NCBI GenBank assembly: GCA_964354375.1
Contig: CAYGZQ010000002.1
Location: forward strand, 44,866-108,865
Source: an uncultured Planctomycetota bacterium
GTDB taxonomy: Bacteria > JAJVIF01 > JAPKYR01
DNA: 64,000 nt
Direction of reading: 5' to 3'
The position numbers and the translations under genes are program-made. The notes beneath the pieces were generated by a model that searched no databases, was not told the origin of the DNA, and saw only the letters and a program-made list of their open reading frames with translations. Positions 2,589-57,864 of this stretch are shown here, one piece after another. Within the stretch, counting starts at the first letter, position 1, and each line of letters opens with the position of its first letter.

Positions 2589-3299
2589 TCACGGTTCGGT
2601 CCGAATGAACTTCGGATTGTTGCCCGCGATAACTATGGTCACTTCGCCCTTCACTTTCCTGTCGACGAACTGCTTGATCAAGTCGGACAAGTACCCCCTG
2701 TGAGTCTCCTCGAACATCTTGGTCAGCTCGACGCAAACGGCGGCCCTGCGGTCGCCGAGGACCTCCAGGGCGGCCTCAAGGACCTTGGAGAGCCGCAGGG
2801 GGGACTCATAGATCACCAGCGTATGGCCCAAGTCCTTTTCCATCTCGAGGGAGCGACGTCGAGCGCCCGGTTTCCTGGGCAGGAAGCCGAGGAAAACGTA
2901 GCTGTCGGTCGGCAGCCCGGAGGAGAGAAGCGCGACCGGCACCGCGCTAGCGCCCGGCACAACAACAACCCCGATCCCCTTCTCGACGGCCTCGCTTATC
3001 AGCCTGTAGCCTGCGTCGCTGATCCCGGGATAGCCTGCGTCGGAGCAGACAGCTACCGAGTTCCCCTGCTCCAGAAGCTTGATGATGCCGGGCGCGGATG
3101 TCTTCTCGTTCGCCTCGCGATAGGAGATGATTCGTCTGGGGGCGGGGATATTGTGCCGGTCGAGGAGGATTCTGGTCCGGCGGGTATCTTCACAAGCAAG
3201 GACATCGACCTCGCCCAGAATGCGTATCGCTCGGAGGGTTATGTCCTCAAGGTTGCCTATGGGAGTGGCGATAATGTATAAAGTTACCTCGGACGGCAT
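2589..3299 (-). CDS. rsmI: 16S rRNA (cytidine1402-2'-O)-methyltransferase RsmI
   Basis: TLYIIATPIGNLEDITLRAIRILGEVDVLACEDTRRT... tetrapyrrole-methylase fold typical of RsmI. Confidence 0.85.
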   Translation of the reverse strand: MPSEVTLYIIATPIGNLEDITLRAIRILGEVDVLACEDTRRTRILLDRHNIPAPRRIISYREANEKTSAPGIIKLLEQGNSVAVCSDAGYPGISDAGYRLISEAVEKGIGVVVVPGASAVPVALLSSGLPTDSYVFLGFLPRKPGARRRSLEMEKDLGHTLVIYESPLRLSKVLEAALEVLGDRRAAVCVELTKMFEETHRGYLSDLIKQFVDRKVKGEVTIVIAGNNPKFIRTEP

Positions 3300-3444
3300 G
3301 TGCTTGCGGGGGCGAGAGTCCCGGGTGCAATTTTACACCAAAGGACGTCGAGATGCCGGATAGCGGCTGTCCGGGGCGGTCCGGCTTGCGCGATATTCAC
3401 AAACGTAATGGGAAATTTCCCTGATTTTCTTCGGTCAATCGGCC

Positions 3445-3473
3445 TTGACGAGACCGCATTCGTGAAGTATATA
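3445..3473 (+). promoter_or_regulatory. Candidate sigma70-type promoter (TTGACG - 17 nt - TATATA) upstream of rpoD
   Basis: -35 at 3445-3450, 17-nt spacer, -10 at 3468-3473, in the 400-bp divergent intergenic region between rsmI and rpoD. Confidence 0.4.
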
Positions 3474-3698
3474 ACACTTGGCTGCTAACAGAGGCGTGAA
3501 CTTGATGAGGGAAAAGGAATGGAGGCTTATGCTCTGCCGGACATAGCGGGTTGATGTGTGGCAGAGCCGCCACGGTGAGGCGCGCGAGAAGCCTTACCGA
3601 TTTTTTTTGCGCATCATGCATCTTTTGGGCAAAACAGCATCTAAGAGAATAGAAGGCGGCTAGGCCTGACCGCTGAGAAATAGCCAAAAAACGCAACG

Positions 3699-9740: not shown

Positions 9741-11789
9741 CTACAGCCTGAAGATCCGGAGCCCGTTCATGTCGTCCCACATATACGCGTAGCCCCCCGA
9801 CACGGCCAGCCTGGAAGAGAGCACCTGCCAGGTCATCATCTCATCCGTCGTGAACGGACTCTCGACCGCAGATTCGGGAAGATCGATCCTGACTGCTCTG
9901 ACAGCCCGATCGCCCGGGGCGTCCGAATACGCATACCGGTCCGATAGGGCTACCGACCATCCCCACGGAGAAAGGGTGTTCACTGTGGACGCCGATTCAG
10001 GGGGGTCGATGTCAACAATGTGAAGCAGGGAGCCTGCCGGCCCCCACCCAAGATCGCCGATCACTGTGCACGCAGCGTACGCGTATCCGTCCGAAATGAC
10101 CAAGTCACCAGTCACTTCCGGCCACACGATGTCGTTCACAACGGATGCCGATTCCGGAGGATCGATGTCGATTATCTGAAGGCCGCCTCCGAAGAACTCT
10201 GCGCCTTCCTGCCAGCACATTCCCCCCACATACGCATAGCCCCCCGACACAGCCAGTGTAGAGGAAAATCCAGGAATGGCCACGCTCTTGATCACCGAGG
10301 CAGACTCGGGTGGGTCGACGTCGACTATCTGGAGCCAGGACTCTCCCGGTTTCTCCGGACCGAACTCTCCGGACCCTGCAGCCGCAACATACGCGTACCC
10401 ACCCGACGCCGCCACTCCCATCGAACCCCCGGAGATTTCAACGGTCTTCACTATGGATGCAGATTCGGGAGGATCAATGTCGATTATCTGGAGGCGGAAC
10501 TCCGTCAAGACATCGGGATCCGGACCTCCCCCCACACTGACAAACGCATAGCCACCCGACACAGCCAGACCGATGGCTCCCGCCGCATCAACGATCTTCA
10601 CTATCGACGGAGATTCCGGAGCATCGAGATCCAGTATCACAAGACCGGACTCTGTGTCCGCAACATACGCGTAGCCTTCCGAGACCGTGACGTCCGCGAC
10701 TGACCACGACTTGTCCACGCAGGCGACGATTGATGTAGATTCGGGAGGATCGATATCGACCACATTGAGACCGGCAGCCATGTCGGCCACATACGCGTAA
10801 CCCCCTTCGATCGTCACATCCACCGCAGAGGGCATGTCGACGGTCTTCACGACCGACGCAGAATCGGGAGGATCTATATCGAGTACCTGGAGGCCGAGCT
10901 CTCTATTCGCCACGTACGCGTAGCCTCCCGACACTGCTACGCAAACAGCGTCTCCCAGGGTCTCCACGGTTTTCACAATCGAGGCAGACTCGGGAGCGCC
11001 GATATCGACAATCTGGAGGCCTTCATCGAAGTCCGCCACATAGGCGTAAGGCCCTGATATGTCCACACCTTGGGCGAGCCCCGTTGTGGGCACAGTCGTC
11101 AATATCGACGCGGACTCGGGAGAATCGATGTCCACAATCTGAAGTCCGCCGAGACCGTCGGCCACATAAGCGTATTCGCCCGACACGGCTACACTTTGGG
11201 CTATGGCCGGCATATCAACTGTTTTCACGACCGACGCAGACTCGGGAGGATCAACGTCGATTAAGTGGAGTCCGCCGACGCCGGAGACCACAAAAGCGTA
11301 CCCATCCGACACGTCCACACCCTGGGCGACCACCGGTGCAGAGATGATTTTCACTACGGACGCAGACTCGGGAGGATAAATGTCAACAATCACAAGACCC
11401 GAGAAACCCGCCGCAACATACGCATAGCCACCCGATACCGCTACCCCGATGGCCTCTCCCGGCGAGGTCTCGCCGCCGGGCTCCATCGGCATGACGACTT
11501 TGTTGACCCAGACAGGGTTCGATGGGTCGGAAATGTCGAAGATGTGAAGGCCGTTTGGGCCACCGGCCACGTAGCAGAGGGTCCCGTCGACGCACATGGA
11601 CCTTACCGAGATGTTCAGCCACGGAGGGGTGATATCCACTGGGTTGAAGGATGCCGCATCCTGCGGAGCTTCAGGCGAATCCGAGCCTCCGTACGCCCTG
11701 CCGGTGAAAGAAGGGCTCACCAGAATCAGCAAGAGGACCGCGGGCAGAATCGCAATTGCCCGAGTCGCGGCCAACCTGTTCTTTCTCAT
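9741..11789 (-). CDS. Secreted LVIVD-repeat beta-propeller protein
   Basis: Sec signal peptide MRKNRLAATRAIAILPAVLLLILVSPSF. More than 12 repeats of the GYAYVA...GLxIVDIDPPESASxV type (LVIVD repeat). ATG at 11789 preceded by GGGAGGA. Confidence 0.75.
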   Translation of the reverse strand: MRKNRLAATRAIAILPAVLLLILVSPSFTGRAYGGSDSPEAPQDAASFNPVDITPPWLNISVRSMCVDGTLCYVAGGPNGLHIFDISDPSNPVWVNKVVMPMEPGGETSPGEAIGVAVSGGYAYVAAGFSGLVIVDIYPPESASVVKIISAPVVAQGVDVSDGYAFVVSGVGGLHLIDVDPPESASVVKTVDMPAIAQSVAVSGEYAYVADGLGGLQIVDIDSPESASILTTVPTTGLAQGVDISGPYAYVADFDEGLQIVDIGAPESASIVKTVETLGDAVCVAVSGGYAYVANRELGLQVLDIDPPDSASVVKTVDMPSAVDVTIEGGYAYVADMAAGLNVVDIDPPESTSIVACVDKSWSVADVTVSEGYAYVADTESGLVILDLDAPESPSIVKIVDAAGAIGLAVSGGYAFVSVGGGPDPDVLTEFRLQIIDIDPPESASIVKTVEISGGSMGVAASGGYAYVAAAGSGEFGPEKPGESWLQIVDVDPPESASVIKSVAIPGFSSTLAVSGGYAYVGGMCWQEGAEFFGGGLQIIDIDPPESASVVNDIVWPEVTGDLVISDGYAYAACTVIGDLGWGPAGSLLHIVDIDPPESASTVNTLSPWGWSVALSDRYAYSDAPGDRAVRAVRIDLPESAVESPFTTDEMMTWQVLSSRLAVSGGYAYMWDDMNGLRIFRL

Positions 11790-11839
11790 GTTTGCTTCCT
11801 CCCATTGTCGAAGCGTTGCATAGGACAACGCAAAGGACG

Positions 11840-26022: not shown

Positions 26023-28917
26023 ATGTTGGCTCGATACGTTCCAGTCTGCGCGGTGATCACGGCCATTCTGACCGCCGGACTCTCATGCTCAGGACAAAGC
26101 GGTGGACCCGGCCCGACAACACCCGATCTCGTCTCCGGGGCTGCAATCCGGCCTGTCCCGGGTTCGCGCCTGCTGCTGTCGGTCGGACGCATCTCCGTGG
26201 ATATTCCCTCAGGTCGGGCGGAGGTCATCCCGTTCCGCCGAGCGCCGTCACACCTGAATGTCGTGCAATGGCTGGAGAAGAACCCGTGCTCTGACTGTGT
26301 CAGGGTGGCAGACATATCTGTCCACTCGGACGGGACGGTCGATCTCGACATTGCACTCAGACACCCATTTTCTTCCCTCAATTTCACCTGCTTTGATGTC
26401 CGCGGAATATTGATGTTTGGCGGGAGCCTCACGTTTCCGACCGCGGGGTTGAACGCGCCCGACCGCGACCTGGGCGACGGAGAGCTTCTCAATGCCGATG
26501 GGTACACCACTCTCTACAATCCCCTGACCTCCGGCCACGGCATGGAGAGCTATCTCAAGGGAGAGCTTGCGTCCGACCCTCCTCCCTCCTGCATCCTGAA
26601 CGCCTTCAGACGTTTCACGAGCAAGGGCTCCGGAAACCTTCGCAATGCCTTCTACGCCGAGGACGAAGTCACTGTGAGATACACGATCAATCCTCCGGCG
26701 CCTTTTGTCTTCGCCTACGCCGTCGATGCGTGCTGGGCGCCGCCGACCACAAAGCCTGTCGAAGACCCCATGACCGACTTCCCTCCCGAGGCCAATTGCC
26801 CCGAGCCGTGGAGAATCCTGATCAGCGACCTTGGTCCGGGGCTCGACACGGAATACGGCCAGACCAGACTGCAGATCGATGTCTATGACCACCAGGACAG
26901 CGTCAATTCGCCTCCTCGCATTGAGGCCCCCTCGCTGTTCGAAGGCATCGTCACGGCGGACCTCAAGGGCGTATACCAGGGATCAAGACGGTATGAGGCC
27001 GTCATCCAGAACCAGAAAAATGCCTCCCCCGGACAGCACAAGTGTCTCGTTTGCGTGGAATCGGACGAGAACGATCCCGCCGCCAAGCCCTGGCTCAATC
27101 TCACGGCGTACCAGATCGCCTCAGTCACAGTGACGGGGACTCCGATCAATCCGGTCGACATAACTCCGGGAGGGCTTCATGTCGAGCCCGTGGAGGTGGC
27201 GGTTGAAGGCGACACAGCCTTCTTTGCCTGCGGCAATGATGGTTTGCATATCTTCGACATCTCCGATCCCTTGAATCCCGTATGGATAGCGAGGCTTGAA
27301 GGAGCAGTCGACTACGTGACAGTAAGCGGGGGGTATGCTTATTTGACGAGCGAGTTCGGTAGCTGGATGGGAATAGCCGCCATAGATCCGCCCGGCTCGG
27401 CACACTTTGTGTCTGGCATCGAGGCGGGCGGCAACTGCGTCGCGATATCCGGTGATTATGCGTATGTGGGCGGCTACGACGGCCCGTCTATCGTCGACAT
27501 AAGCTCCCCGGAGTCACCGAGCATTGTCAAACAGATCGGACTGCCGTATACAAGCGATGTGGCGGTATCAGGCGGGTACGCATACGCTACGACCAGCGAA
27601 TATGATCAGACTCTGGTCGTGATAGATGTAGACCCGCCCGGCGAGGCCTCGATTGTGAAGAAAGTGAAGCTTGACCATCCCGGCGGTTATGTCGAGGTGA
27701 GCGGCGATTGCGCGTATGTGACTATCGGGAGTAAATGGGGCTCGTCGGCTCTGGGCCTCTACATAGTGGACATAAACCCGCCTTCCGACGCACATGTCAT
27801 CAAGACCTGCGGGACCCTCGGGCAACCTTATTCCCTGATGCTCAGAGATGGGTACGCGTTTCTTTCCACGGAATACGCCGATATCGAGGTGATCGACATA
27901 GACCCGCTCGCGGACGCTCATACTGTTGCGCTTGCCGAGCTTCCTCAGCAGGCCCAAAGCATCGCCTTGCGTGACGACCTTGCCTATCTCGCGGCGGGGG
28001 AGGACGGCATCCTCGTCTGCGACATCGATCCGCTCGAGTCGATCCATGTCGTGTGGAACAGCCTGGTGCTGCACGAGTCTGTCACGATCGCGGTGTCGGA
28101 CGGACATGTCCTCCTCGGAACCCCACCTTATGGACTGCAGATTGTCGACATCGACCCGCCCTACAAGGCAAGGCTCGTCGGGGACATCGAGCTTCCCGAT
28201 GATCCCCGTGACATCGCTGTCTGCGACGGCTACGCGTATCTGGCCGATGGTGGCGGGGATCTGCAGGTTGTGGACATCGACCCACCCGACTCAGCGTGCG
28301 TAGTTGGCTTTCTCCCCGTAGAAGGTTCCGTTAACAGAGTCGCAGTATCCGGAAGTACTCTTTGCAGCCTCTCGTACGCGGGAGGGGCGAGTTCGCTGCG
28401 CGTTCTGCGACTAGGGCCATCAGGTTCCGTCTCGCCGGTCTCAGTAATAGCTCTTCCACAAGGCGCGGATTCGCTGGTGGTTGCCGGTGGTTACACCTAT
28501 TGCTCGGGTGGCTGGCCCTGCAGTCTTCAGATCATCGACATCGACCCACCCGAATCGGCGGCTATCGTGTCGACCCTGGATGTATATGCCCGCATTTGCG
28601 CTGTCTCAGGCGGTTACGCCTACCTCGCGGCAGATTCAGATGATGTCTTGGTTGTCGACGTGACTTCCCCCCAGTCGCCTGCACTCGCCGAGACTATTTC
28701 TCTCCCGGAATCATGCCGGGACATTCGAGTCTCCGGCGGCTATGCCTACGCGCTTGGAGATACGAATCTGTACGTGATCGATATCGATCCTCTCGATTCC
28801 GCATCGGTGATCGCCTCTTGCCCGGTGGCGGACTACTCAGCCGCAGGGTTGGAGATTTCCGGGAGATACGCCTACATCGGCGGCAGCGCGGGTCTGCAGA
28901 TCATCAGGCTCTGGTGA
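26023..28917 (+). CDS. Large surface lipoprotein, paralog C: conserved N-domain + LVIVD beta-propeller repeats
   Basis: Lipobox TAGLSC. N-domain motifs RHPFSS..CFDVRGI, NADGYTTLYNP, AYAVDACWAPP, DFPPEANCPEP. The C-terminal half has GYAY...IVDIDPPxSA repeats. Confidence 0.7.
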   Translation: MLARYVPVCAVITAILTAGLSCSGQSGGPGPTTPDLVSGAAIRPVPGSRLLLSVGRISVDIPSGRAEVIPFRRAPSHLNVVQWLEKNPCSDCVRVADISVHSDGTVDLDIALRHPFSSLNFTCFDVRGILMFGGSLTFPTAGLNAPDRDLGDGELLNADGYTTLYNPLTSGHGMESYLKGELASDPPPSCILNAFRRFTSKGSGNLRNAFYAEDEVTVRYTINPPAPFVFAYAVDACWAPPTTKPVEDPMTDFPPEANCPEPWRILISDLGPGLDTEYGQTRLQIDVYDHQDSVNSPPRIEAPSLFEGIVTADLKGVYQGSRRYEAVIQNQKNASPGQHKCLVCVESDENDPAAKPWLNLTAYQIASVTVTGTPINPVDITPGGLHVEPVEVAVEGDTAFFACGNDGLHIFDISDPLNPVWIARLEGAVDYVTVSGGYAYLTSEFGSWMGIAAIDPPGSAHFVSGIEAGGNCVAISGDYAYVGGYDGPSIVDISSPESPSIVKQIGLPYTSDVAVSGGYAYATTSEYDQTLVVIDVDPPGEASIVKKVKLDHPGGYVEVSGDCAYVTIGSKWGSSALGLYIVDINPPSDAHVIKTCGTLGQPYSLMLRDGYAFLSTEYADIEVIDIDPLADAHTVALAELPQQAQSIALRDDLAYLAAGEDGILVCDIDPLESIHVVWNSLVLHESVTIAVSDGHVLLGTPPYGLQIVDIDPPYKARLVGDIELPDDPRDIAVCDGYAYLADGGGDLQVVDIDPPDSACVVGFLPVEGSVNRVAVSGSTLCSLSYAGGASSLRVLRLGPSGSVSPVSVIALPQGADSLVVAGGYTYCSGGWPCSLQIIDIDPPESAAIVSTLDVYARICAVSGGYAYLAADSDDVLVVDVTSPQSPALAETISLPESCRDIRVSGGYAYALGDTNLYVIDIDPLDSASVIASCPVADYSAAGLEISGRYAYIGGSAGLQIIRLW

Positions 28918-39231: not shown

Positions 39232-39250
39232 AGACGCGCGCTGCGCGCCG

Positions 39251-39937
39251 GGTGGCGCCCACAGCCGGAGCGTCAGCGTAGGCTGTGGGTGAGCCCAGAT
39301 CACAGTCCTTTCAGTATCTCCAAATCCAACGGGATTTCCCCCTTCTCACCAACCAGCCATCCACGCGCGCTTCCCCATTTCCATTCTGTCGCTGTCATCA
39401 CCAAACCCTTCTTCACCGGATTATCGTGTATATATTGCACTTCAGCAAGAATGGCATCCTGTGTCCTCAGGTTTCTGTCATAGCCCCCTCCATCCTGCCA
39501 GAATCTGTATCTCGGTCTTGCTAAGCCCGTCTCGATACGCGCCAACAGCTTCGGACTTCTCTCTCTGATGACTGGAATCGCCTTGTTAGCCGACGATTGC
39601 TTGATTGACCTGAGTATGTCAGAGATTGAATACTCCTCCCGCCTCGGGAATATCAACAGGTGAACATGATCCGGCATGAACAGCCATGCCACAATTGCGA
39701 AATCATGCAGACGCCCCGCTCGTATTATAGCCTGCGCCACAATCTGCTTTGTGAAGGCATATTTCAAAAGGGGAAGATTCCTGAAGCACGAAAAATTGAG
39801 CGCGTGCGCGTGGCCTGGGACATTGAAATGCTGATACTTCCTGCCAAGCTCATTCGAAGGTCTCATAGGTAGTATTATATATCTTCTATTGAGGTCACCC
39901 ACAGCCTACGCTGACGCTCCGGCTGTGGGCGCCACCC
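39251..39937. mobile_element. Compact RAYT/IS200-like element: tyrosine (HUH) transposase gene flanked by perfect 42-bp terminal inverted repeats, each internally hairpin-forming
   Basis: Left end GGTGGCGCCCACAGCCGGAGCGTCAGCGTAGGCTGTGGGTGA (39251-39292) is the exact reverse complement of the right end 39896-39937. GC of the interior is about 50%, against about 61% for the flanks. Confidence 0.8.
39300..39902 (-). CDS. REP-associated tyrosine transposase (RAYT) / IS200-family TnpA (HUH Y1 transposase)
   Basis: HUH motif HVHLLI and catalytic Tyr region EVQYIHDNP. About 200 aa. Confidence 0.75.
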   Translation of the reverse strand: MGDLNRRYIILPMRPSNELGRKYQHFNVPGHAHALNFSCFRNLPLLKYAFTKQIVAQAIIRAGRLHDFAIVAWLFMPDHVHLLIFPRREEYSISDILRSIKQSSANKAIPVIRERSPKLLARIETGLARPRYRFWQDGGGYDRNLRTQDAILAEVQYIHDNPVKKGLVMTATEWKWGSARGWLVGEKGEIPLDLEILKGL

Positions 39938-40067
39938 CGAGAATAAGTCATCGATGTCCGGGTGCCCGTCACAAGCGTAGCTTGTGGCTGTTTTGTCCTA
40001 TGTAAAGAGTCCCGACAGTCGCAGCCTCCGCTAACGGGGTTGTTGAAAAAGTCGAATTTGTAAAGGC

Positions 40068-40086
40068 ACGGCATGCCGTGCCCTTT
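40068..40086. repeat. Short perfect palindrome GGCACGGCATGCCGTGCC (second copy at 51044-51062)
   Basis: Seen directly in two intergenic locations. Confidence 0.6.
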
Positions 40087-40117
40087 CTGATGCCGAATGA
40101 ATGGCAGGCTGGTAGCT

Positions 40118-44830: not shown

Positions 44831-44892
44831 CCGCCATAATCGATTCCGGTCATTTTCTATCGTTACATCCCGTGAATCCTGGATGACAAGCC

Positions 44893-51019: not shown

Positions 51020-51062
51020 TTTCCCTCGGTACAAGTAGGGGCACGGCATGCCGTGCCCTACA

Positions 51063-51878
51063 TTATGCATTTTTCTCGGCTCTTAGCATCCTCGAGAGGG
51101 TCGCGAAGCCCTCGACCGTCACTTCCTGCGCGCGCGCGGATGGGCTGACCCCCATGCGTTGAATGATGTCCTCGATTTTCGCCGCCGGCATTTCCGGGAA
51201 TCCGGCGTGCAGATTGTTCTTGAGCGTCTTACGTCTCATGTGAAAGGCAACCTGCACCGTCCGCTCGAAGGTGTCGACAAGATCCGGCTCGACCAGCGGC
51301 GTCTTGCGGGGGGTCATCCTGATGAGCGTGCTCGTCACCTTCGGAGGCGGCTTGAACGCATCGGGAGGAATGTTGAACAGGATTTCGGTTTCGAGAAATG
51401 CGCCCAGTGAGACCGACAGCCGACCGTAGCTGTGATCGGACGGTTTCGACGCTATTCTCTGGGCGACCTCTTTCTGAATCAGGAGAATCGCTCGCCGGAA
51501 ATCGAGCCCGCTGTAGGCCAGCCTGAGGAGCAGAGGAGAGGTGATGTAGTACGGCAGATTCCCGGTGATGACGAGCGGCTCGACAGGTTCGAGGCCGAGT
51601 GCGGTCCGATCCCACTCGATCTTCAGCGCGTCCGCCTCGCGGACTTCGACATTCCCTCCCCAGGACGGCGCGAATTTCCTGAGATGCTCCGCCCATCCGG
51701 AATCGATCTCAAAGACGATGAGGCGTTTGCATCGGGACGCGATGACGCGCGTGAGTGCGCCCCTGCCGCCGCCGATCTCGACGCAGGCTTCCTCCTCGCG
51801 AAGCTCGATCGCGTCGGCGATTCGGCCGGTCGCGCGCTTGTCCACAAGCCAGTGTTGTCCCAGTTTCGCCCGAGTCAT
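51063..51878 (-). CDS. rsmA: 16S rRNA (adenine1518/1519-N6)-dimethyltransferase
   Basis: GQHWL, EIGGGRGALT, NLPY motifs. Confidence 0.85.
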   Translation of the reverse strand: MTRAKLGQHWLVDKRATGRIADAIELREEEACVEIGGGRGALTRVIASRCKRLIVFEIDSGWAEHLRKFAPSWGGNVEVREADALKIEWDRTALGLEPVEPLVITGNLPYYITSPLLLRLAYSGLDFRRAILLIQKEVAQRIASKPSDHSYGRLSVSLGAFLETEILFNIPPDAFKPPPKVTSTLIRMTPRKTPLVEPDLVDTFERTVQVAFHMRRKTLKNNLHAGFPEMPAAKIEDIIQRMGVSPSARAQEVTVEGFATLSRMLRAEKNA

Positions 51879-51950
51879 TGATCGAAAGCATATCACGTCC
51901 CCGACATGCGGGACACACTAGCCAGGTGCCGCCTATCCGAGCCGTGTGGC

Positions 51951-52050
51951 ACCCTTAAGAATCGTCCTCGATTCTTAAGGGTGCTGCTATGGAACGAGGC
52001 ATATCAAAGCCACCCATAAGAGGCCGGGAAGCCTCTTATGGGTGCCACCC
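51951..52050. repeat. Two adjacent REP-like hairpins with GTGGCACCC bases (GCACCCTTAAGAATCG/CGATTCTTAAGGGTGC and GCCACCCATAAGAGGC/GCCTCTTATGGGTGCCACC)
   Basis: Seen directly, immediately upstream of the AT-rich island. Confidence 0.65.
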
Positions 52051-52201
52051 CAGCTTTCGTATGCTAGACTGAATGGCACCAAGAACCGTCCTCGGCGTGC
52101 CGGCGGAGCACCACTGCTTCACAGACGAGGAGCTGAACTTCATCGTCAACTATGACATCAAGTACCGGGTGGGGAGACGGTCGGGGGAGGAAGAAAAACG
52201 A

Positions 52202-52921
52202 GTGACTGCCAAATTGCTGTATAACATATACTGCGACGAGAGCTGCCATCTGGAATCTACTGACGCTTATGGAATGGTTATCGGCGCGATATGGTGCCCA
52301 ATCAACAGTTCCAGGGCTATAGCTGATGAGGTGCGCGAACTTAAGACAAAACACGGAATGGGTGTAAGGCGCGAGATAAAGTGGACTGGATTATCATCCG
52401 CGAAACTGCACTTTTATCTGGAGGTGTTGGATTACTTTTTCAAGAGGGACGACCTCAATTTCAGAGCTATTGTCATTCCTGATAAAGGAATTCTGGACCA
52501 CAAAGCATTTAATCAGGAGCACGGGACCTGGTATTACAAGATGTTCTATGACCTTCTAAAGATGCTGTTTGTTCCGAACTCATCATACAGGATATTTCTA
52601 GATGTAAAGGACACACATTCAGGATACCGGGCAGAGCAACTGCGAGGGATTCTGGAACGTCGCGCAAACCAAATGGAGAACTGTGTTATTGAGCTTATTC
52701 AGAATGTCCGTTCTCACGAAGTCCAGCAGATTCAGCTTGTTGATTTGTTGATCGGTGCAATCAGTTACGCCAGCCGCGGTCTGAAATCAAGCGATGCCAA
52801 ACTTGAGTTTGTTACCCGTTTCGAAAGATTGGTGGGAGGGTCAATAATAAATACAACACCGGCATCCCGAACAAAGGTAAACATTCTTAGATGGGATCCT
52901 GATCGGGGGCGGCAAAGCTGA
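52202..52921 (+). CDS. DUF3800-family protein (low-GC island gene 1)
   Basis: N-terminal NIYCDESCH motif characteristic of DUF3800. GTG start after a GGGAGGAAG RBS. Local GC is about 45%. Confidence 0.6.
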   Translation: MTAKLLYNIYCDESCHLESTDAYGMVIGAIWCPINSSRAIADEVRELKTKHGMGVRREIKWTGLSSAKLHFYLEVLDYFFKRDDLNFRAIVIPDKGILDHKAFNQEHGTWYYKMFYDLLKMLFVPNSSYRIFLDVKDTHSGYRAEQLRGILERRANQMENCVIELIQNVRSHEVQQIQLVDLLIGAISYASRGLKSSDAKLEFVTRFERLVGGSIINTTPASRTKVNILRWDPDRGRQS

Positions 52922-52922
52922 T

Positions 52923-53399
52923 ATGGATTGGCTGCCACCACTGGTACATATTAATGAAACTGGTGGAAATGTCGCTCAATATTACGAGCTGCTATATCGG
53001 CACTATCTAAATGACCTTGTATATGATCCACCGGAATTTGAGGGTACTCAGATCAGAACCATGGTAAATCCGTTGAAACAGGAAAAGGAAGCAGGATTCT
53101 GGCATATCCTAGAAGGTGGGAACGAACATGTTCTCGATGATTCACTGAGGCGTCATGAGAGAATTCGATGGGTAAGACCTATCATTCAGGCTGTTGGCAC
53201 AAAGGAGGTTCTGATGTGGAAAAGGCCTGTGAGGGAAGGTGTCACAAAACCACATGTTGTTCTTCCAGATTTCAGTTATATCGTTATTCTTCAAGAAGGC
53301 AAGGTGGCAGTAACTCTCATAACGGCTTTCCCAGTGGATCGTGCGAGGAGGAGACAAGACTATCGTAAGGAATGGGAGAGATGTCAACAGGGAGTCTAA
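52923..53399 (+). CDS. Hypothetical protein (low-GC island gene 2), translationally coupled to the DUF3800 gene
   Basis: ATG 1 nt after the upstream stop. 158 aa, no recognised domain. Confidence 0.5.
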   Translation: MDWLPPLVHINETGGNVAQYYELLYRHYLNDLVYDPPEFEGTQIRTMVNPLKQEKEAGFWHILEGGNEHVLDDSLRRHERIRWVRPIIQAVGTKEVLMWKRPVREGVTKPHVVLPDFSYIVILQEGKVAVTLITAFPVDRARRRQDYRKEWERCQQGV

Positions 53400-53587
53400 A
53401 AAAGCAATGCCGCCGAAGCGACATTTAAGCTGTGCTTACAACATGGTAAGTCAGCAATGTTCTTATACCACAAACCAGGCTGTTTGTCAAGAGAGGAAAG
53501 GTCTGCTAACAGGTTGGAAATCCAAGCCCGTCATCGAGCACATCGAGTGGGTGCCACCCGACCACGTTGTTGCCGTTATGCGGGACT

Positions 53588-53670
53588 TCAATAGTCCGCC
53601 CGGATTCGTGCGTAGAAGGGCTGCGGCGGGAACGGATAACCTCTCCAGAAGGCGATGGTGCTCGTGTCGC
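53588..53670. repeat. 83-bp direct repeat copy A (duplicate of the 3' end of lipoprotein gene D, 1 mismatch)
   Basis: Identical except one C/T to 55206-55288. Encodes ...TIAFWRGYPFPPQPFYARIRADY-stop on the minus strand. Confidence 0.8.
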
Positions 53671-53687
53671 CGGCCGGCAGGCGGCGG

Positions 53688-54188
53688 TTACAAATCCGAG
53701 AATCGGTCGTCTGCGACGGTCCGGTCCACCGGTGAGCTGTCGAGCCAGCCGCTGTGGCTTTCGGGAAAAGCATCAAACCGGGGGCAGTAGGGTTTGATGT
53801 CGAGAAGCGGTGTCCCATCCACAACATCGATTCCGGCCACATGAAGCCGACCGCCGTCGATCCGCAGAAGGCGCACGGCGGACAAGCCGATGGGATTTGG
53901 ACGGCATGGTGCGCGAGTGGCGAACAGGCCGCGCTCCCGGACTTCCCGGAAGGGCTGGACCAGAAGTCGCGATCGTGGAGCGCGGTGGAGCCAGTAAACA
54001 AGCCAGACGCGTTCAAAGCCCTCCAGGTCCTGAAGCCCTGCCAGGTACTCCGGGAACACCTCTACGATGCCCTCTGTGTCGCCTGCATATACCGGCTGGA
54101 TGGGGACGCTCTCTATCTCCTTGAAAGGCGAATGAATTACGCCGATGGCCTTAAGCTCCGGAATTCTCTCTGAGTGGCGTTCAGTCAT
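53688..54188 (-). CDS. tsaA: tRNA (adenine37-N6)-methyltransferase TsaA/TrmO (YaeB family)
   Basis: IGVIHSPF...ERVWLVYWLH...RPNPIGLS..L..I.G..L.V.G.D.VDGTPLLDIKPY hallmark blocks. ATG at 54188. Confidence 0.75.
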   Translation of the reverse strand: MTERHSERIPELKAIGVIHSPFKEIESVPIQPVYAGDTEGIVEVFPEYLAGLQDLEGFERVWLVYWLHRAPRSRLLVQPFREVRERGLFATRAPCRPNPIGLSAVRLLRIDGGRLHVAGIDVVDGTPLLDIKPYCPRFDAFPESHSGWLDSSPVDRTVADDRFSDL

Positions 54189-54585
54189 GGTGACAACACT
54201 CACCGGTCGTGCTGCGGGTGGCAAGGTCACCCCGATAGTATGCAAGCGCCGCCGCTTCCGGATCCATTGGCTCGGACAGGATGAGGGCCCTGATCCCGGA
54301 AGATTCCAGGGCGGCAACGGCCCGCGGTCCCATACCGAGGCAGATGACCGCCTCGCAATCGGCGAGCATTGCCATACGATCCTGGTGGCCATGTTCCGTC
54401 TTACCATGGCAGTTGCGCTCACCGTGTCCGTGCTCGCCCTTGCCGTCGCCGCACGAGCCAGCAGCCCGGCGCACTTCGCGATGCGACACCTTGCCGTCCT
54501 CGACCTCGAGAACAAGGAAACCGTCGCAATGGCCGAAGTGCGCCGCGATGCTTCTGCCGTCATCCGTAGCACACGCTAGCTTCAT
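54181..54585 (-). CDS. NifX/NifB-type dinitrogenase FeMo-cofactor-binding-domain protein with His-rich insert
   Basis: MKLACATDDGRSIAAHFGHCDGFLVLEV typical of the NifX-NifB (PF02579-like) fold. Insert GDGKGEHGHGERNCHGKTEHGHQD. Confidence 0.65.
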   Translation of the reverse strand: MKLACATDDGRSIAAHFGHCDGFLVLEVEDGKVSHREVRRAAGSCGDGKGEHGHGERNCHGKTEHGHQDRMAMLADCEAVICLGMGPRAVAALESSGIRALILSEPMDPEAAALAYYRGDLATRSTTGECCHHD

Positions 54586-55121
54586 TTGGATTCACTCCCG
54601 GTCGGTGTTGGGCTGTCCTTGGACGTGCGACGGGGGGTCGCCCGACCGCCGCCCTTGCGGCTGCAGCCCTGACCGCGCCCTCCCGGGCCACCGTGACGCG
54701 CCCGGCCGCGGTCCTCTTCCGCACGGTGCAGATTCTTTCCGCTGCATTGGGGGCATTCGCGGGGTCTCCCGGTGCCGTGCGGAATCTCCCACGTGTGTTG
54801 ACAGTCCGAGCAACGGAAACGTCTCATAGTCGTGAGCATGATGTTTCCTCCTTCCAGTTTGAGCGCCTTGCCTTTCACAACGGCCTCGGCGACCTTTCGC
54901 CGAGCGGACTCGATCAACCGAGTGAAAGTGGGGCGTGATATGTTCATTTTACCGGCCGCCTCCTCCTGGTACAGGCCTTCAAGGTCGGCCAGCCGTATCG
55001 CCTCCAGTTCATCGAGCCCCAGGACGACTTCCTCAAGGGCCGTCATTGGCACGCCCCGGGGCTTGAAGTAGACGCACACGGGCTGATAGGCGATTCGACG
55101 GCAGCAAGGCGGACGAGGCAT
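54582..55121 (-). CDS. DUF134/UPF0251-family protein with C-terminal zinc ribbon
   Basis: MPRPPCCRRIAYQPVCVYFKPRGVP...LEAIRLADLEGLYQEEAAGKMNISRPTFTRL. CxxC...CxxC at the C-terminus. ATGA overlap with the downstream gene. Confidence 0.7.
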   Translation of the reverse strand: MPRPPCCRRIAYQPVCVYFKPRGVPMTALEEVVLGLDELEAIRLADLEGLYQEEAAGKMNISRPTFTRLIESARRKVAEAVVKGKALKLEGGNIMLTTMRRFRCSDCQHTWEIPHGTGRPRECPQCSGKNLHRAEEDRGRARHGGPGGRGQGCSRKGGGRATPRRTSKDSPTPTGSESK

Positions 55122-55205
55122 ATGCTATCTTCTCACTACCCCACATTATGAACAAAAGTTCAAAATAGTCAAGCCCGAAATTGCACTTTCGCCGACAAAC
55201 AACAC

Positions 55206-55288
55206 GTCAATAGTCCGCCCGGATTCGTGCGTAGAAGGGCTGCGGCGGGAACGGATAACCTCTCCAGAAGGCGATGGTGCTTGTGTCG
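55206..55288. repeat. 83-bp direct repeat copy B (native 3' end of lipoprotein gene D)
   Basis: See copy A. Confidence 0.8.
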
Positions 55289-57864
55289 CTGTCCCAGCAG
55301 GGATCGGTGATTCCGGCAAACGAGCACCAGGTTCCCTGATAGGGGGTGTTGTCGTTGACAGATCCCATTTCGATCAGGTTGCCGTTGCGATCGATCAGAG
55401 CGACATCGGTTCTCCAGCCTGATGTCGCGGCATCGTGCCAAAAATCGATATATGCGTTGCCGTCGGGGTCGCATGCGATGCCGGTGACATTCTCGGACTG
55501 TGAGCCGGGAATGATCTTTCCCTGCCATGAGCCCGAGCGATTGTTGGTGTATGCGGCCTGGGTCATTGTGACGCACCAGGCGACATGGACCGTCCCGAGG
55601 TAATCCACCGCCACTGCGGCGAAGTTCGGATATCCCGACACGCCCGAAGATGCCACTTCGATGGAGCCCCATGTGCCGGACGCATTGCGTTTCATGTACA
55701 TGATGGTGGATGCGCCGGGACCGGTCCAGACGAGATGAAGGTTGCCGAACCGGTCGGCGACCATGTCGGGACGCATGTGGTAGATGTCGGGGTTGACCTG
55801 GGTTGTGAGATCGACCGGCGCAGACAGACTCCCCGGCTGTCCATGAACATAGACCAGCTTGTAGTTGCCGCTGTACGAGGGCATGACGATGTGGATCTCG
55901 TCGTCGGGAGTGACGGCGATCGTCGATTCTCCTTCATACCCGGACGGGGAAGTGAAGGTATGAATCGTGGTGAAGTTCTGGACGGCATTGCCCGGCGTGA
56001 CCATTGCGTAGTAGTAGGCGTGCGACGTGCTGTAATAGCTCGTCCATACGATGTGCGCGTTGCCCTGCGAATCCGGGGCGACATCGGCGACCTCACCGTA
56101 CGCATACGAGCCGAGACTCACCTCCTGGAAGCTGGTGGGATTGGTCATGGAGGACCGTACGAACCTCGTGGGAAGGGCGTAGACCAGGTAGATCGTCCCG
56201 TCCGGTGTGACGAACGAGTTGACGAAATTGGAGGCCCCGACATTTCCCATCTGTCCGTCGGGATTTTCGAGGTCGGTGAAACCCTTCGGCGCGACGTAGA
56301 CCGGGGTAGCGGACGTCATCGCGGACGCATTGGACTCGGTCGCGTCGATATCGACAGCCTTGACCACATAATCGTATGTCGTGCCGGTCATGAGAACGGC
56401 GGTGTCGATGTAGTCGGTATCGGTGAGTATCGTGGGGTTGAGGGGGTCCAGAAAGTCGAAACCGGGAGCGGTCGAGAGTTTCCGGTAGACGTTGTAACCG
56501 GCGAGCGTGGGCCAGTCGACGGGATCCCAGAAGAGATGGACCACTCCGGCAGCGGCGCAGTTATCGAGGCCGGTGGGCGTGGGGATCGAAACGGGCTCCT
56601 CGGTGAGGATCGGCGCGTCCCAGAACAGGAAAGCCGCAAGAGGCTCCTCGGGATAATCGAAGCCCGAGATGCCCTCGAGATTCGGCGCATAATCGGAGGG
56701 GGACTCGGACTCGACCGCGACCATCAGAGTCTGACCGGTCAGGCCGGATGGAGTAACGTCCGCGATCTCCACATGGAACACCGATGAAGTCGGGCCGTCC
56801 GGAGACACGACGGCTGCGGGCAGAACATCTATCGGCGTATCGAAGAGATCAGGGGACTCGACCCATATCGCGGCGACTTCCCCCGGAACCCCGAGCGGAT
56901 TTTCCACAGCCTGCCAGTCGTAGACGGTAATGTCGAGGACAAGATCGCCGCCGTTCTCGGTCGGCGAGACATACCATGCGTCGGAGCCGGCATCGGCGAC
57001 GGCCAGCATGTACGCTTCCTGGCAATTCGCGCTGAGAGAATAGTCCTCGGGGAGATAGACCGGGCCGTCGCCTGTCGGCGCGTCCCAGCTCGCATCGACC
57101 GCGTAATTGAATTCCACCACCGGCGAGCCCGCGTCCATCGGGAAATGAATCATGTAGCGCCGCTCGTTGAAGCCAGGGGATGTGGCGAAAAATCCCCGGG
57201 TGGCGGGATCGATCACAAGCTCGTCCTCGCTTTCAAGATCGTCCGCGAAATACTTGTAGGGGTTCAGCGTCGCCGTCGCCGTGAAACCGGGAGAGGCCAG
57301 CGCCCCCTGAGTGTATCCGAAGATCGTATTGTATGTCGTGAATTCGGTGGGATTCCACCAGCGCGTCCAACCGTCGGAGTTCAGGAGCCTCGCTTCATCG
57401 CCTGCAGCGTAAAGGAGATTGCTGTAATGGTCGCTCAGGACGCTGCCGTCCGACATGAAAATCCCCCTCACGTCGAAGCCGGAATACATCGATATCCCCG
57501 GAAACGGATGATGGAGCATGACGTCGACCGCGAAGAGGCCCTCAGGGATGTCGCTTGCGAACGGGTCGATCGACACGGTGATGCGGTTGATCGGCGAGAT
57601 CGGCTTCTGCATGAACATGGTCACGTTCGCGTTGAACTCGGCCGTTCTGGACGGTTCAACCGTCACCTCGAGCGTACGTGTGTCGATGCCGATTTCGTAG
57701 ACGCCCCACACGACGCGAGAGCTGCCCAAGCAGGATGCCCGGTGACCGCTGAGGTCGGGCGCCGCCGTTGGACCGAGAACTGAATCACCTGCGGTCGAGC
57801 AACCGACGATCATCGACACGAGCAGAATAATCCCCAGCCAAATAATGTTTACACGGGTGTTCAT
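55207..57864 (-). CDS. Large surface lipoprotein, paralog D (885 aa): conserved N-domain + beta-propeller/YVTN-like C-terminal region
   Basis: Lipobox MIVGC. N-domain motifs LHHPFPG..SGFDVRGI, SDGWTRWWNPTEF, NPYKYFADDL, NYAVDASWDAP, YSLSANCQEAY. Confidence 0.7.
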   Translation of the reverse strand: MNTRVNIIWLGIILLVSMIVGCSTAGDSVLGPTAAPDLSGHRASCLGSSRVVWGVYEIGIDTRTLEVTVEPSRTAEFNANVTMFMQKPISPINRITVSIDPFASDIPEGLFAVDVMLHHPFPGISMYSGFDVRGIFMSDGSVLSDHYSNLLYAAGDEARLLNSDGWTRWWNPTEFTTYNTIFGYTQGALASPGFTATATLNPYKYFADDLESEDELVIDPATRGFFATSPGFNERRYMIHFPMDAGSPVVEFNYAVDASWDAPTGDGPVYLPEDYSLSANCQEAYMLAVADAGSDAWYVSPTENGGDLVLDITVYDWQAVENPLGVPGEVAAIWVESPDLFDTPIDVLPAAVVSPDGPTSSVFHVEIADVTPSGLTGQTLMVAVESESPSDYAPNLEGISGFDYPEEPLAAFLFWDAPILTEEPVSIPTPTGLDNCAAAGVVHLFWDPVDWPTLAGYNVYRKLSTAPGFDFLDPLNPTILTDTDYIDTAVLMTGTTYDYVVKAVDIDATESNASAMTSATPVYVAPKGFTDLENPDGQMGNVGASNFVNSFVTPDGTIYLVYALPTRFVRSSMTNPTSFQEVSLGSYAYGEVADVAPDSQGNAHIVWTSYYSTSHAYYYAMVTPGNAVQNFTTIHTFTSPSGYEGESTIAVTPDDEIHIVMPSYSGNYKLVYVHGQPGSLSAPVDLTTQVNPDIYHMRPDMVADRFGNLHLVWTGPGASTIMYMKRNASGTWGSIEVASSGVSGYPNFAAVAVDYLGTVHVAWCVTMTQAAYTNNRSGSWQGKIIPGSQSENVTGIACDPDGNAYIDFWHDAATSGWRTDVALIDRNGNLIEMGSVNDNTPYQGTWCSFAGITDPCWDSDTSTIAFWRGYPFPPQPFYARIRADY

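Follow-up and report, generated by a model that had tools for sequence, protein, structure and literature searches.

Decayed integrative elements of the cis-mobilizable element (CIME) type (defined in PMC5704250), like other islands located at the 3'-ends of genes, are characterized by direct repeats around accessory genes, one of the repeats being the functional 3'-end of the target gene. The islands at ssrA, the single-copy tmRNA gene, of Dehalococcoides are a comparable case (PMC3146451). The locus described here lies in a stretch of 64,000 nt (hereafter the window; positions 44,866 to 108,865 of contig CAYGZQ010000002.1, assembly GCA_964354375.1) from an uncultured Planctomycetota bacterium, and consists of a three-gene operon for a DUF134 protein, a NifX-like protein and a TsaA-family protein, set between two direct repeats, R1 and R2, that both represent the 3'-end of a lipoprotein gene. 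It shares with the described islands the position of the repeats, a block of identity that ends at the gene end, as in elements that rebuild the 3'-end of their target, the lack of integrase or transfer genes inside, and a content that varies between close relatives. It differs in that the target is a lipoprotein gene and not a tRNA or tmRNA gene, in that the insert is only 1.5 kb, in that no cognate integrase is known or was found, and in that the repeat (R) has no visible integrase-binding inverted repeats, the attachment (att) sites being putative.

Two other kinds of described system are relevant. Campbell-type integration produces the same A-R-B-R-C structure, with a repeat as long as the shared homology and with reversal possible via the repeats; at the present locus, by contrast, no circular partner was observed and the repeat pre-exists in a relative. 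Hot spots between core genes, at which accessory or defence islets are exchanged through homologous recombination in the flanks, are similar in having conserved flanks (here the lipoprotein gene and ksgA) and a content that differs in the closest relatives, and a low-GC candidate defence pair, PDC-M04, is present in this slot. The slot differs in that it also contains direct repeats which originate from the flanking gene and undergo gene conversion; an internal pair of this kind is not known to be general to such hot spots. The locus adds one more case to kinds of genome dynamics that are already known.

The duplicated end of the lipoprotein gene

The two copies, both on the minus strand, were identical over 75 nt (R1, 53588-53662; R2, 55207-55281) and matched over 83 nt with one mismatch (C at 53663, T at 55282), weaker homology extending the alignment to 91 nt at 96% identity. 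Their spacing was 1619 nt. No other long, high-identity dispersed direct repeat was present within the window, and the probability that this one arose by chance is negligible. A preliminary description, made from the window alone, had reported the 83-bp repeat, had derived it from the final 27 codons and the stop codon of the lipoprotein gene and had noted that it was far too long for a normal target-site duplication. These points stand, except that the gene-end copy had been placed one base off, at 55206-55288. R1 begins 12 nt past the stop codon of the TsaA gene and is in a different frame, and so the possibility that it is an extension of TsaA was rejected. The coordinates of all features are collected in Table 1.

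The closest relative of the lipoprotein (P0001, 92% amino acid identity) was encoded on ENA contig k141_224832, referred to as L002. A JGI contig, L007, is an independent assembly from the same species (99% identity). Both contigs were syntenic with window 64000-42315 at 85-94% identity; L002 1-3214 corresponded to window 58406-55196 at 90.5%, and L002 3599-13201 to window 51919-42315 at 92.9%. In both, the lipoprotein gene is followed by ksgA, with neither the DUF134/NifX/TsaA operon nor the DUF3800 genes of the window. A DUF134 orthologue of about 90% identity was absent from the sample series of the relative, where the best matches were 69-78%, and the lineage of the relative is therefore probably without the operon altogether. 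No mention of the sample accessions was found in the searchable literature.

The empty site of L002 and L007 was compared with the filled site of the window, and was found to have two copies already. In L002, positions 3150-3207 recur at 3442-3499 (58 nt, 90%, spacing 292 nt), the identity between copies in the relative being 90-93%. The second L002 copy is orthologous to window R1, as L002 3442-3534 aligned with R1 together with its 40-nt downstream flank (81%, E = 4e-17). An alignment of six sequences revealed that the homology between R1-type and R2-type copies ends three nucleotides after the stop codon (stop+3) in both lineages. Past this point the gene-end flanks are similar for about the first 11 nt only, and the downstream flanks are homologous to each other over 36-40 nt. 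Since the second copy, its boundary and its downstream flank are shared, the duplication predates the split of the lineages. This comparison shows that R1/R2 is an old duplication of the lipoprotein 3'-end, present in the common ancestor with the closest sampled relative, and that it is not a target-site duplication made by insertion of the operon. The preliminary description had proposed the latter, which is contradicted by a relative that lacks the cassette and yet has the 3'-end duplicated in the same place, with the same boundary and flank.

The L002 counterpart of R1 (L-R1') is shorter than R1, 58 nt compared to at least 83 nt, and its truncated end is abutted by a repetitive extragenic palindrome (REP) element at 3393-3441; no remnant of the missing 5' part was found upstream of this REP. 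In frame, L-R1' still reads GYPSPPQPFYARIQTDY up to a stop codon. The inter-repeat content of L002 consists of 185 nt of unrelated DNA plus the REP element. The 185-nt spacer showed no homology to the ends of the cassette, the cassette proteins, the other loci or the region upstream of the lipoprotein gene, and it was thereby ruled out as a cassette remnant. Within L002, positions 3244-3340 contain a promoter-like site (TTGACA-17-TATAAA), two hairpins and a T-run, potentially an orphan leader or a small RNA, with no match in Rfam. An element resembling a small RNA and common to this spacer and window ~53495-53400 was considered and rejected, the local alignment being no better than those of shuffled sequences. 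Relatives of 51-64% identity, as far as their downstream region could be read, have HflX, a paralogue or a convergent gene after the lipoprotein gene and never ksgA, and there was no second copy of the 3'-end in the two of these loci that were checked (L003 and L004).

The copies do not evolve independently. The 58 nt common to all copies include four sites at which window R1 and R2 agree with one another and differ from the two L002 copies, L-R1' and L-R2', which likewise agree; such lineage-specific shared states indicate concerted evolution. Over 520 nt, 7 differences separate L002 from L007, and three of them lie inside the repeat copies (3164, 3181 and 3452). Each of these three single-nucleotide differences brings one copy to the base present in the other, for which the probability by chance is about 4e-5 by our estimate. 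Within the species of the relative, these differences amount to gene conversion in progress between repeats of 58 nt at a spacing of 292 nt. Taken together, the alignments show that gene conversion takes place between the copies and maintains their near-identity in the window. A single mismatch in 83 nt therefore does not date an insertion: the repeats are older than the cassette, or independent of it, and have been homogenized. A reading of the high identity as a sign of a recent event is not supported, as gene conversion of the kind seen in the relative accounts for it.

Table 1. Positions of the features of the locus (window coordinates unless a locus is named)
Feature	Position	Strand	Remarks
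ksgA/rsmA (RrnaAD)	51063..51896	-	Conserved right-hand border of the slot
REP-like hairpin with GGGTGGCACCCA head	52006..52050	-	Just upstream of ksgA; matches the L002 3555-3597 hairpin in position
PDC-M04 islet	52051..53547	+	Low GC, lineage-specific; starts 40 nt beyond R1
PDC-M04A (DUF3800)	52073-52921	+	PADLOC 1.6e-82
PDC-M04B, 158 aa	52923-53399	+	PADLOC 2e-38
R1 downstream flank	53548..53587	-	Orthologous to L002 3500-3534; ends in the REP-head motif GGGTGGCACCCA (53548-53559)
Repeat copy R1	53588..53670	-	Non-coding relic of the lipoprotein 3'-end; weaker homology to 53585-53675
TrmO/TsaA-family protein, 166 aa	53688..54188	-	N-terminal domain only; PF01980, 3.3e-39
NifX/NifB-C-terminal-like (Nitro_FeMo-Co, 'Di-Nase') protein	54181..54585	-	Cys/His-rich loop and C-terminal CCH motif
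DUF134 (UPF0251) helix-turn-helix protein	54582..55121	-	C-terminal CxxC...CxxC zinc ribbon; PF02001, 1.3e-24
Operon promoter, TTGACT-16-CATAAT	55145..55172	-	Sigma-70-like; contains the palindrome
Palindrome (candidate operator)	55146-55165		L020 415-434; L021 173-192; L022 1267-1286; L023 326-345
Palindrome 5' of DUF134, further loci			L008, L011, L014, L019
Repeat copy R2	55207..55289	-	Last 27 codons and stop of the lipoprotein gene; weaker homology to 55204-55294
Lipoprotein gene, 885 aa	55207..57864	-	Lipobox MIVGC; large paralogous family

Independent support for the locus came from an exact-protein look-up, which returned one Logan unitig, of 1604 bp and from run ERR3804374. It matched window 53633-55236 with no mismatch, and covered all of the segment between the repeats as well as 30 nt (k-1, k = 31) within either copy. 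Given this extent, both junctions of the cassette with the repeat are present in the reads of ERR3804374. The Logan graph is a loop, and on its own it cannot separate the integrated form from a 1619-bp circle. That the arrangement is an assembly artefact or has an alternative topology, with one chromosomal copy and with the operon and R being circular, tandemly amplified or from another strain, is very unlikely. The k = 31 graph of ERR3804374 does break exactly at the 75-nt repeat. However, the relative has diverged, unambiguous copies in two independent assemblies, so that two copies at the locus are genuine, and the copies of the window have distinguishing mismatches in their flanks, as two loci should. 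A circle of 1.6 kb would also be without a replication gene, and the operon has the codon usage of the host. A repeat of 75 nt is below the usual Illumina read length, and the path through it is normally resolved by the reads.

The lipoprotein belongs to a large family, of which the closest members share a C-terminal tail, ...FWR..P...ARIQ/RxDY. Among the homologues P0001-P0120, this tail was confined to the closest 14. No Pfam domain was detected, and an NCBIfam match was weak and below threshold (PDIAV_lipo). The N-terminal half (~47% of the query) was common to hundreds of proteins with differing C-terminal halves, including PQQ/BamB-like, PKD and FG-GAP types. The window encodes further relatives at about 14.3 kb and 19.8 kb.

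Origin of the duplication

The locus is interpreted, with moderate confidence, as an att-like scar that has decayed, or as a recombination slot: an old, gene-converting duplication of a gene end, which now holds an accessory operon. As would be required of an integrative element, the locus has direct repeats, one of which is the 3'-end of a target gene, and the homology between them ends at stop+3. No integrase, transposase or reverse transcriptase was found between the repeats or among the open reading frames scanned in window 40-64 kb, most of which is syntenic housekeeping DNA, and the lack of an integrase fits no state but a decayed, CIME-like one. A circular element would have recombined into the end of the lipoprotein gene to leave an attL/attR-like scar, and its recombination genes would later have been lost. 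The content between the repeats may since have been replaced or lost through homologous recombination at the conserved flanks and repeats. With 75 bp of identity, the operon could be lost in a RecA-dependent manner and the lipoprotein gene would remain intact.

Several points weigh against this interpretation. The att-scar origin is inferred from anatomy alone, because there is no integrase or other recombinase in the repeats or in window 40-64 kb and because R is without inverted repeats or structure. An integrase-bearing occupant was found in neither of the two lineages that share the locus; these are the only two that do, the adjacency of the lipoprotein gene and ksgA being present in no outgroup compared. 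As judged from the L002 spacer, which has no homology to either end of the cassette, the two alleles are not related by a simple deletion. In addition, the identity is exact up to the last base of the stop codon, about 3 nt from the end of the homology, which is a little unusual for a conversion tract and fits a recent recombination equally well.

One alternative is a recent Campbell-type insertion, in which a circle carrying the operon and a lipoprotein 3'-end recombined recently with the chromosomal copy of this lineage, through RecA or an unlinked recombinase. The near-identity would then signify newness, and the older relic would have been overwritten or used as the recombination partner. 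The 75 exact nucleotides and single mismatch in 83, set against 90-93% between the copies of the relative, would be expected on such an account, as would the extremely tight fit of the operon against both repeats and the lack of a close DUF134 orthologue in the large sample series of the relative (best matches as given above); the ends of the Logan unitig inside both repeats are also compatible with a 1619-bp circle. An insertion of this kind is nonetheless unlikely. The relative has both copies with the same boundary, so that insertion need not create the repeat, and the conversion visible between copies suffices for their identity; moreover, the codon usage of the operon is host-like, and no donor or circular form was observed. 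A different origin, without any integrative element, would make R1 the last remnant of a tandem paralogous lipoprotein gene, the body of which was deleted or replaced by the operon. Tandem paralogues with a ...RIQTDY tail do occur in a 63%-identical relative (as in L003/L005), the stop codon is where homology between paralogous coding sequences is expected to end, and the in-frame reading of L-R1' would agree with a former gene. Yet the tandem tails of L003 have just 16 nt in common, which is not enough for conversion to begin, neither lineage showed any further trace of the body of a paralogue, and the inter-repeat DNA had no homology to the region upstream of the lipoprotein gene, which leaves a recent whole-gene tandem duplication unsupported. 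This origin is accordingly rated as rather improbable.

The reading of the preliminary description, that the 83-bp repeat is a long target duplication resulting from insertion of the cassette, agrees with the precision with which the repeat flanks the cassette. It is scarcely tenable, given that the relative has the duplication without the cassette, that no transposase or terminal inverted repeats were found, and that other DUF134 loci have no such flanking repeats. The locus thus corrects a tempting inference, as precise boundaries formed by a long repeat had looked like an unusual insertion mechanism. It is also quite improbable that the repeat pair is a functional module for operon capture, swap or reversible excision at the lipoprotein 3'-end, with no linked integrase. 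If this were so, the identity would be kept by conversion under selection and the locus would be a gene-cassette slot of a non-integron type, possibly served by an unlinked recombinase or by an activity associated with REP elements and their REP-associated tyrosine transposase (RAYT), the latter being considered because REP heads sit at the boundaries of the slot.

A number of other candidates were examined and rejected. A target-site duplication of a transposon or insertion sequence (IS) was excluded by the length of 83 bp, by the two copies in the relative and by the lack of a transposase and of terminal inverted repeats. An integron attC cassette was ruled out, with no inverted repeats, a fold z-score for R of +0.3 and no integrase found. 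For a diversity-generating retroelement, no reverse transcriptase was present among the open reading frames scanned in 40-64 kb, and the mismatches did not follow the adenine pattern of a template repeat: the window mismatch is G (downstream) vs A (gene copy), and those in L002 are T/C, G/T, G/C and C/T. No inverted repeats were detected in window 52000-57000. A structured or functional RNA in R was dismissed on fold z-scores of about zero, and Rfam gave no match in window 51800-55400 or L002 3000-3800. Neither the repeat core nor the DUF134 protein had a match in viral_contigs, which ruled out a phage or viral origin.

The three-gene operon and its promoter

The interval between the repeats holds exactly three genes, all on the minus strand. 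DUF134 is separated from the lipoprotein gene and R2 by an 82-nt spacer, the NifX-like gene overlaps DUF134 by 4 nt (ATGA), and the TsaA gene overlaps the NifX-like gene by 8 nt. The three co-oriented, tightly packed genes and their family assignments in the preliminary description were confirmed with Pfam. The DUF134 protein scored 87.1 bits with PF02001 (gathering cutoff 27) and the NifX-like protein 61.2 bits with PF02579 (gathering cutoff 26.3), and both are members of these families. The equivalog models of NCBIfam for NifX, NifB and MrpORP scored far below their own cutoffs, and the NifX-like protein is therefore assigned to the domain family only. TsaA scored 142.2 bits with TIGR00104 (cutoff 93.25) and is a member of TrmO_N, the only Pfam domain detected in its 166 aa. 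TrmO is a tRNA m6t6A methyltransferase, and its E. coli form, YaeB, carries a C-terminal TrmO domain. The codon usage of the operon is host-like (z = -0.9), with a GC content at third codon positions (GC3) of 0.69, compared to 0.72 +/- 0.04.

The operon has its own promoter, within which lies a candidate operator, TTTTGAAC-TTTT-GTTCATAA. This palindrome of 20 bp (TTATGAACATATGTTCATAA) overlaps the -10 element. It occurred once in the window, against 0.04 matches expected. The consensus, TTGACAgTTATGAACATATGTTCATAAT, was found together with the promoter ahead of DUF134 genes at five further independent loci, making six with the window. The surroundings of these five loci were otherwise unrelated, and their DUF134 proteins just 69-77% identical. 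The homology to other DUF134 promoters starts 22 nt past R2. On this pattern of conservation, the palindrome is probably the DUF134 operator. Its conserved position over the -10 element suggests autoregulation of DUF134-NifX-like pairs, in which DUF134 is predicted to bind the palindrome over its own -10 element. The conserved operator is the most useful new lead from this locus, and a prediction that extends to a widespread, uncharacterized family.

The DUF134-NifX pair, with overlapping stop and start codons, was present in most of the homologue loci fetched. The exceptions were the L011-type loci, in which DUF134 is followed by a chromate transporter instead of the NifX-like gene. The locus thus resembles the known pairs in its stop/start overlap and in having PF02001 and PF02579 both above threshold. 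The recurrence of the pair had been anticipated in the preliminary description, as had the lack of a described function: no functional study of DUF134 was found in the searchable literature. Flanking repeats like the 83-bp pair were seen at none of the other DUF134 loci. The third gene varied among homologue loci, being a FeS_assembly_P gene with a Zn-ribbon gene, a gene for a Fer4 protein, or one for a 424-aa protein, and in some DUF134-NifX loci NifU_N and radical SAM genes are located nearby.

The linkage to TsaA had been regarded as unusual. In L008, however, a relic of a window-type TsaA C-terminus (60-71% amino acid identity, E = 3e-8) lies downstream of DUF134-NifX, and another TrmO_N gene is found 1 kb beyond it, indicating that the linkage recurs. 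The relic (L008 7649-7788) is frameshifted and is situated 3' of the gene order DUF134-NifX-FeS_assembly_P-Zn_ribbon. The DUF134 protein of L010 is identical to that of L008 and has another downstream context, with radical SAM and NifU_N genes. The TrmO-family protein may be an accessory, variable third partner of the pair.

The NifX-like protein was previously described as carrying a His-rich insert that pointed to metal handling, possibly of nickel. The segment is instead a Cys/His-rich loop found throughout the family, with an invariant H-G, and is accompanied by a C-terminal CCH motif. The nearest NCBIfam matches of the domain were the Di-Nase domains of MrpORP, NifB and NifX. The Di-Nase domain of MrpORP binds Fe-S clusters (PMC6345978). 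The match to this domain, together with homologue neighbours of the Fe-S type (FeS_assembly_P, NifU_N, radical SAM and Fer4), points to the handling of Fe-S or metal clusters and gives no pointer to nickel. Judged by these neighbours and the Di-Nase match, the operon looks Fe-S or metal-cluster related, and the NifX-like protein may bind such a cluster via the Cys/His loop and the CCH tail. Unlike MrpORP, the protein is a stand-alone Di-Nase domain, with the Cys/His-rich loop and CCH tail and with no P-loop partner.

The lipoprotein-ksgA slot and other elements of the window

Two separate segments of the window, each of 1.5 kb, are additional to the sequence of L002: the operon, which R2 and R1 enclose, and an islet, which is a second, independent insertion. 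Comparison of the sister lineages shows that the lipoprotein-ksgA slot is a hot spot of variation whose content differs between them. The islet contains adjacent genes matching the A and B models of the PADLOC candidate defence system PDC-M04, to which the pair is thus assigned. Its GC content is 0.47, and both codon usage (z = -4) and GC3 (z = -6) deviate. It is missing from the closest relative, where REP-like hairpins occur at the corresponding places. With its accessory operon and candidate defence pair, the locus provides a natural case, on a small scale, of a chromosomal slot that has collected such genes.

The islet is bracketed by direct copies of GGGTGGCACCCA on the minus strand, at 53548-53559 and 52039-52050. 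Elsewhere in the window, exact copies of this 12-mer occur only on the two sides of an IS200-like/RAYT gene at 39300-39902. The RAYT gene is on the minus strand (Y1_Tnp, 28.9 bits) and is flanked, within window 39250-39937, by 48-nt inverted REP hairpins at 39250-39297 and 39890-39937, which are 96% complementary. Their head, GGGTGGCNCCCA, was found elsewhere only at the boundaries of the PDC-M04 islet. Three REP-like elements are present in the lipoprotein-ksgA intergenic region of L002, at 3393-3441, 3513-3534 and 3555-3597, and REP/RAYT activity may contribute to the rearrangements of the slot.

Two other types of repeat were observed elsewhere in the window. Coding tandem repeats with a period of ~126 nt, in 8-11 copies of 60-88% identity, are located in large open reading frames at 9741-11828 and 28134-28803, the two regions being similar to each other in inverted orientation. 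A palindromic motif, GGCACGGCATGCCGTGCC, occurs at 40060-40101 and 51021-51068, in intergenic or gene-start positions 11 kb apart.

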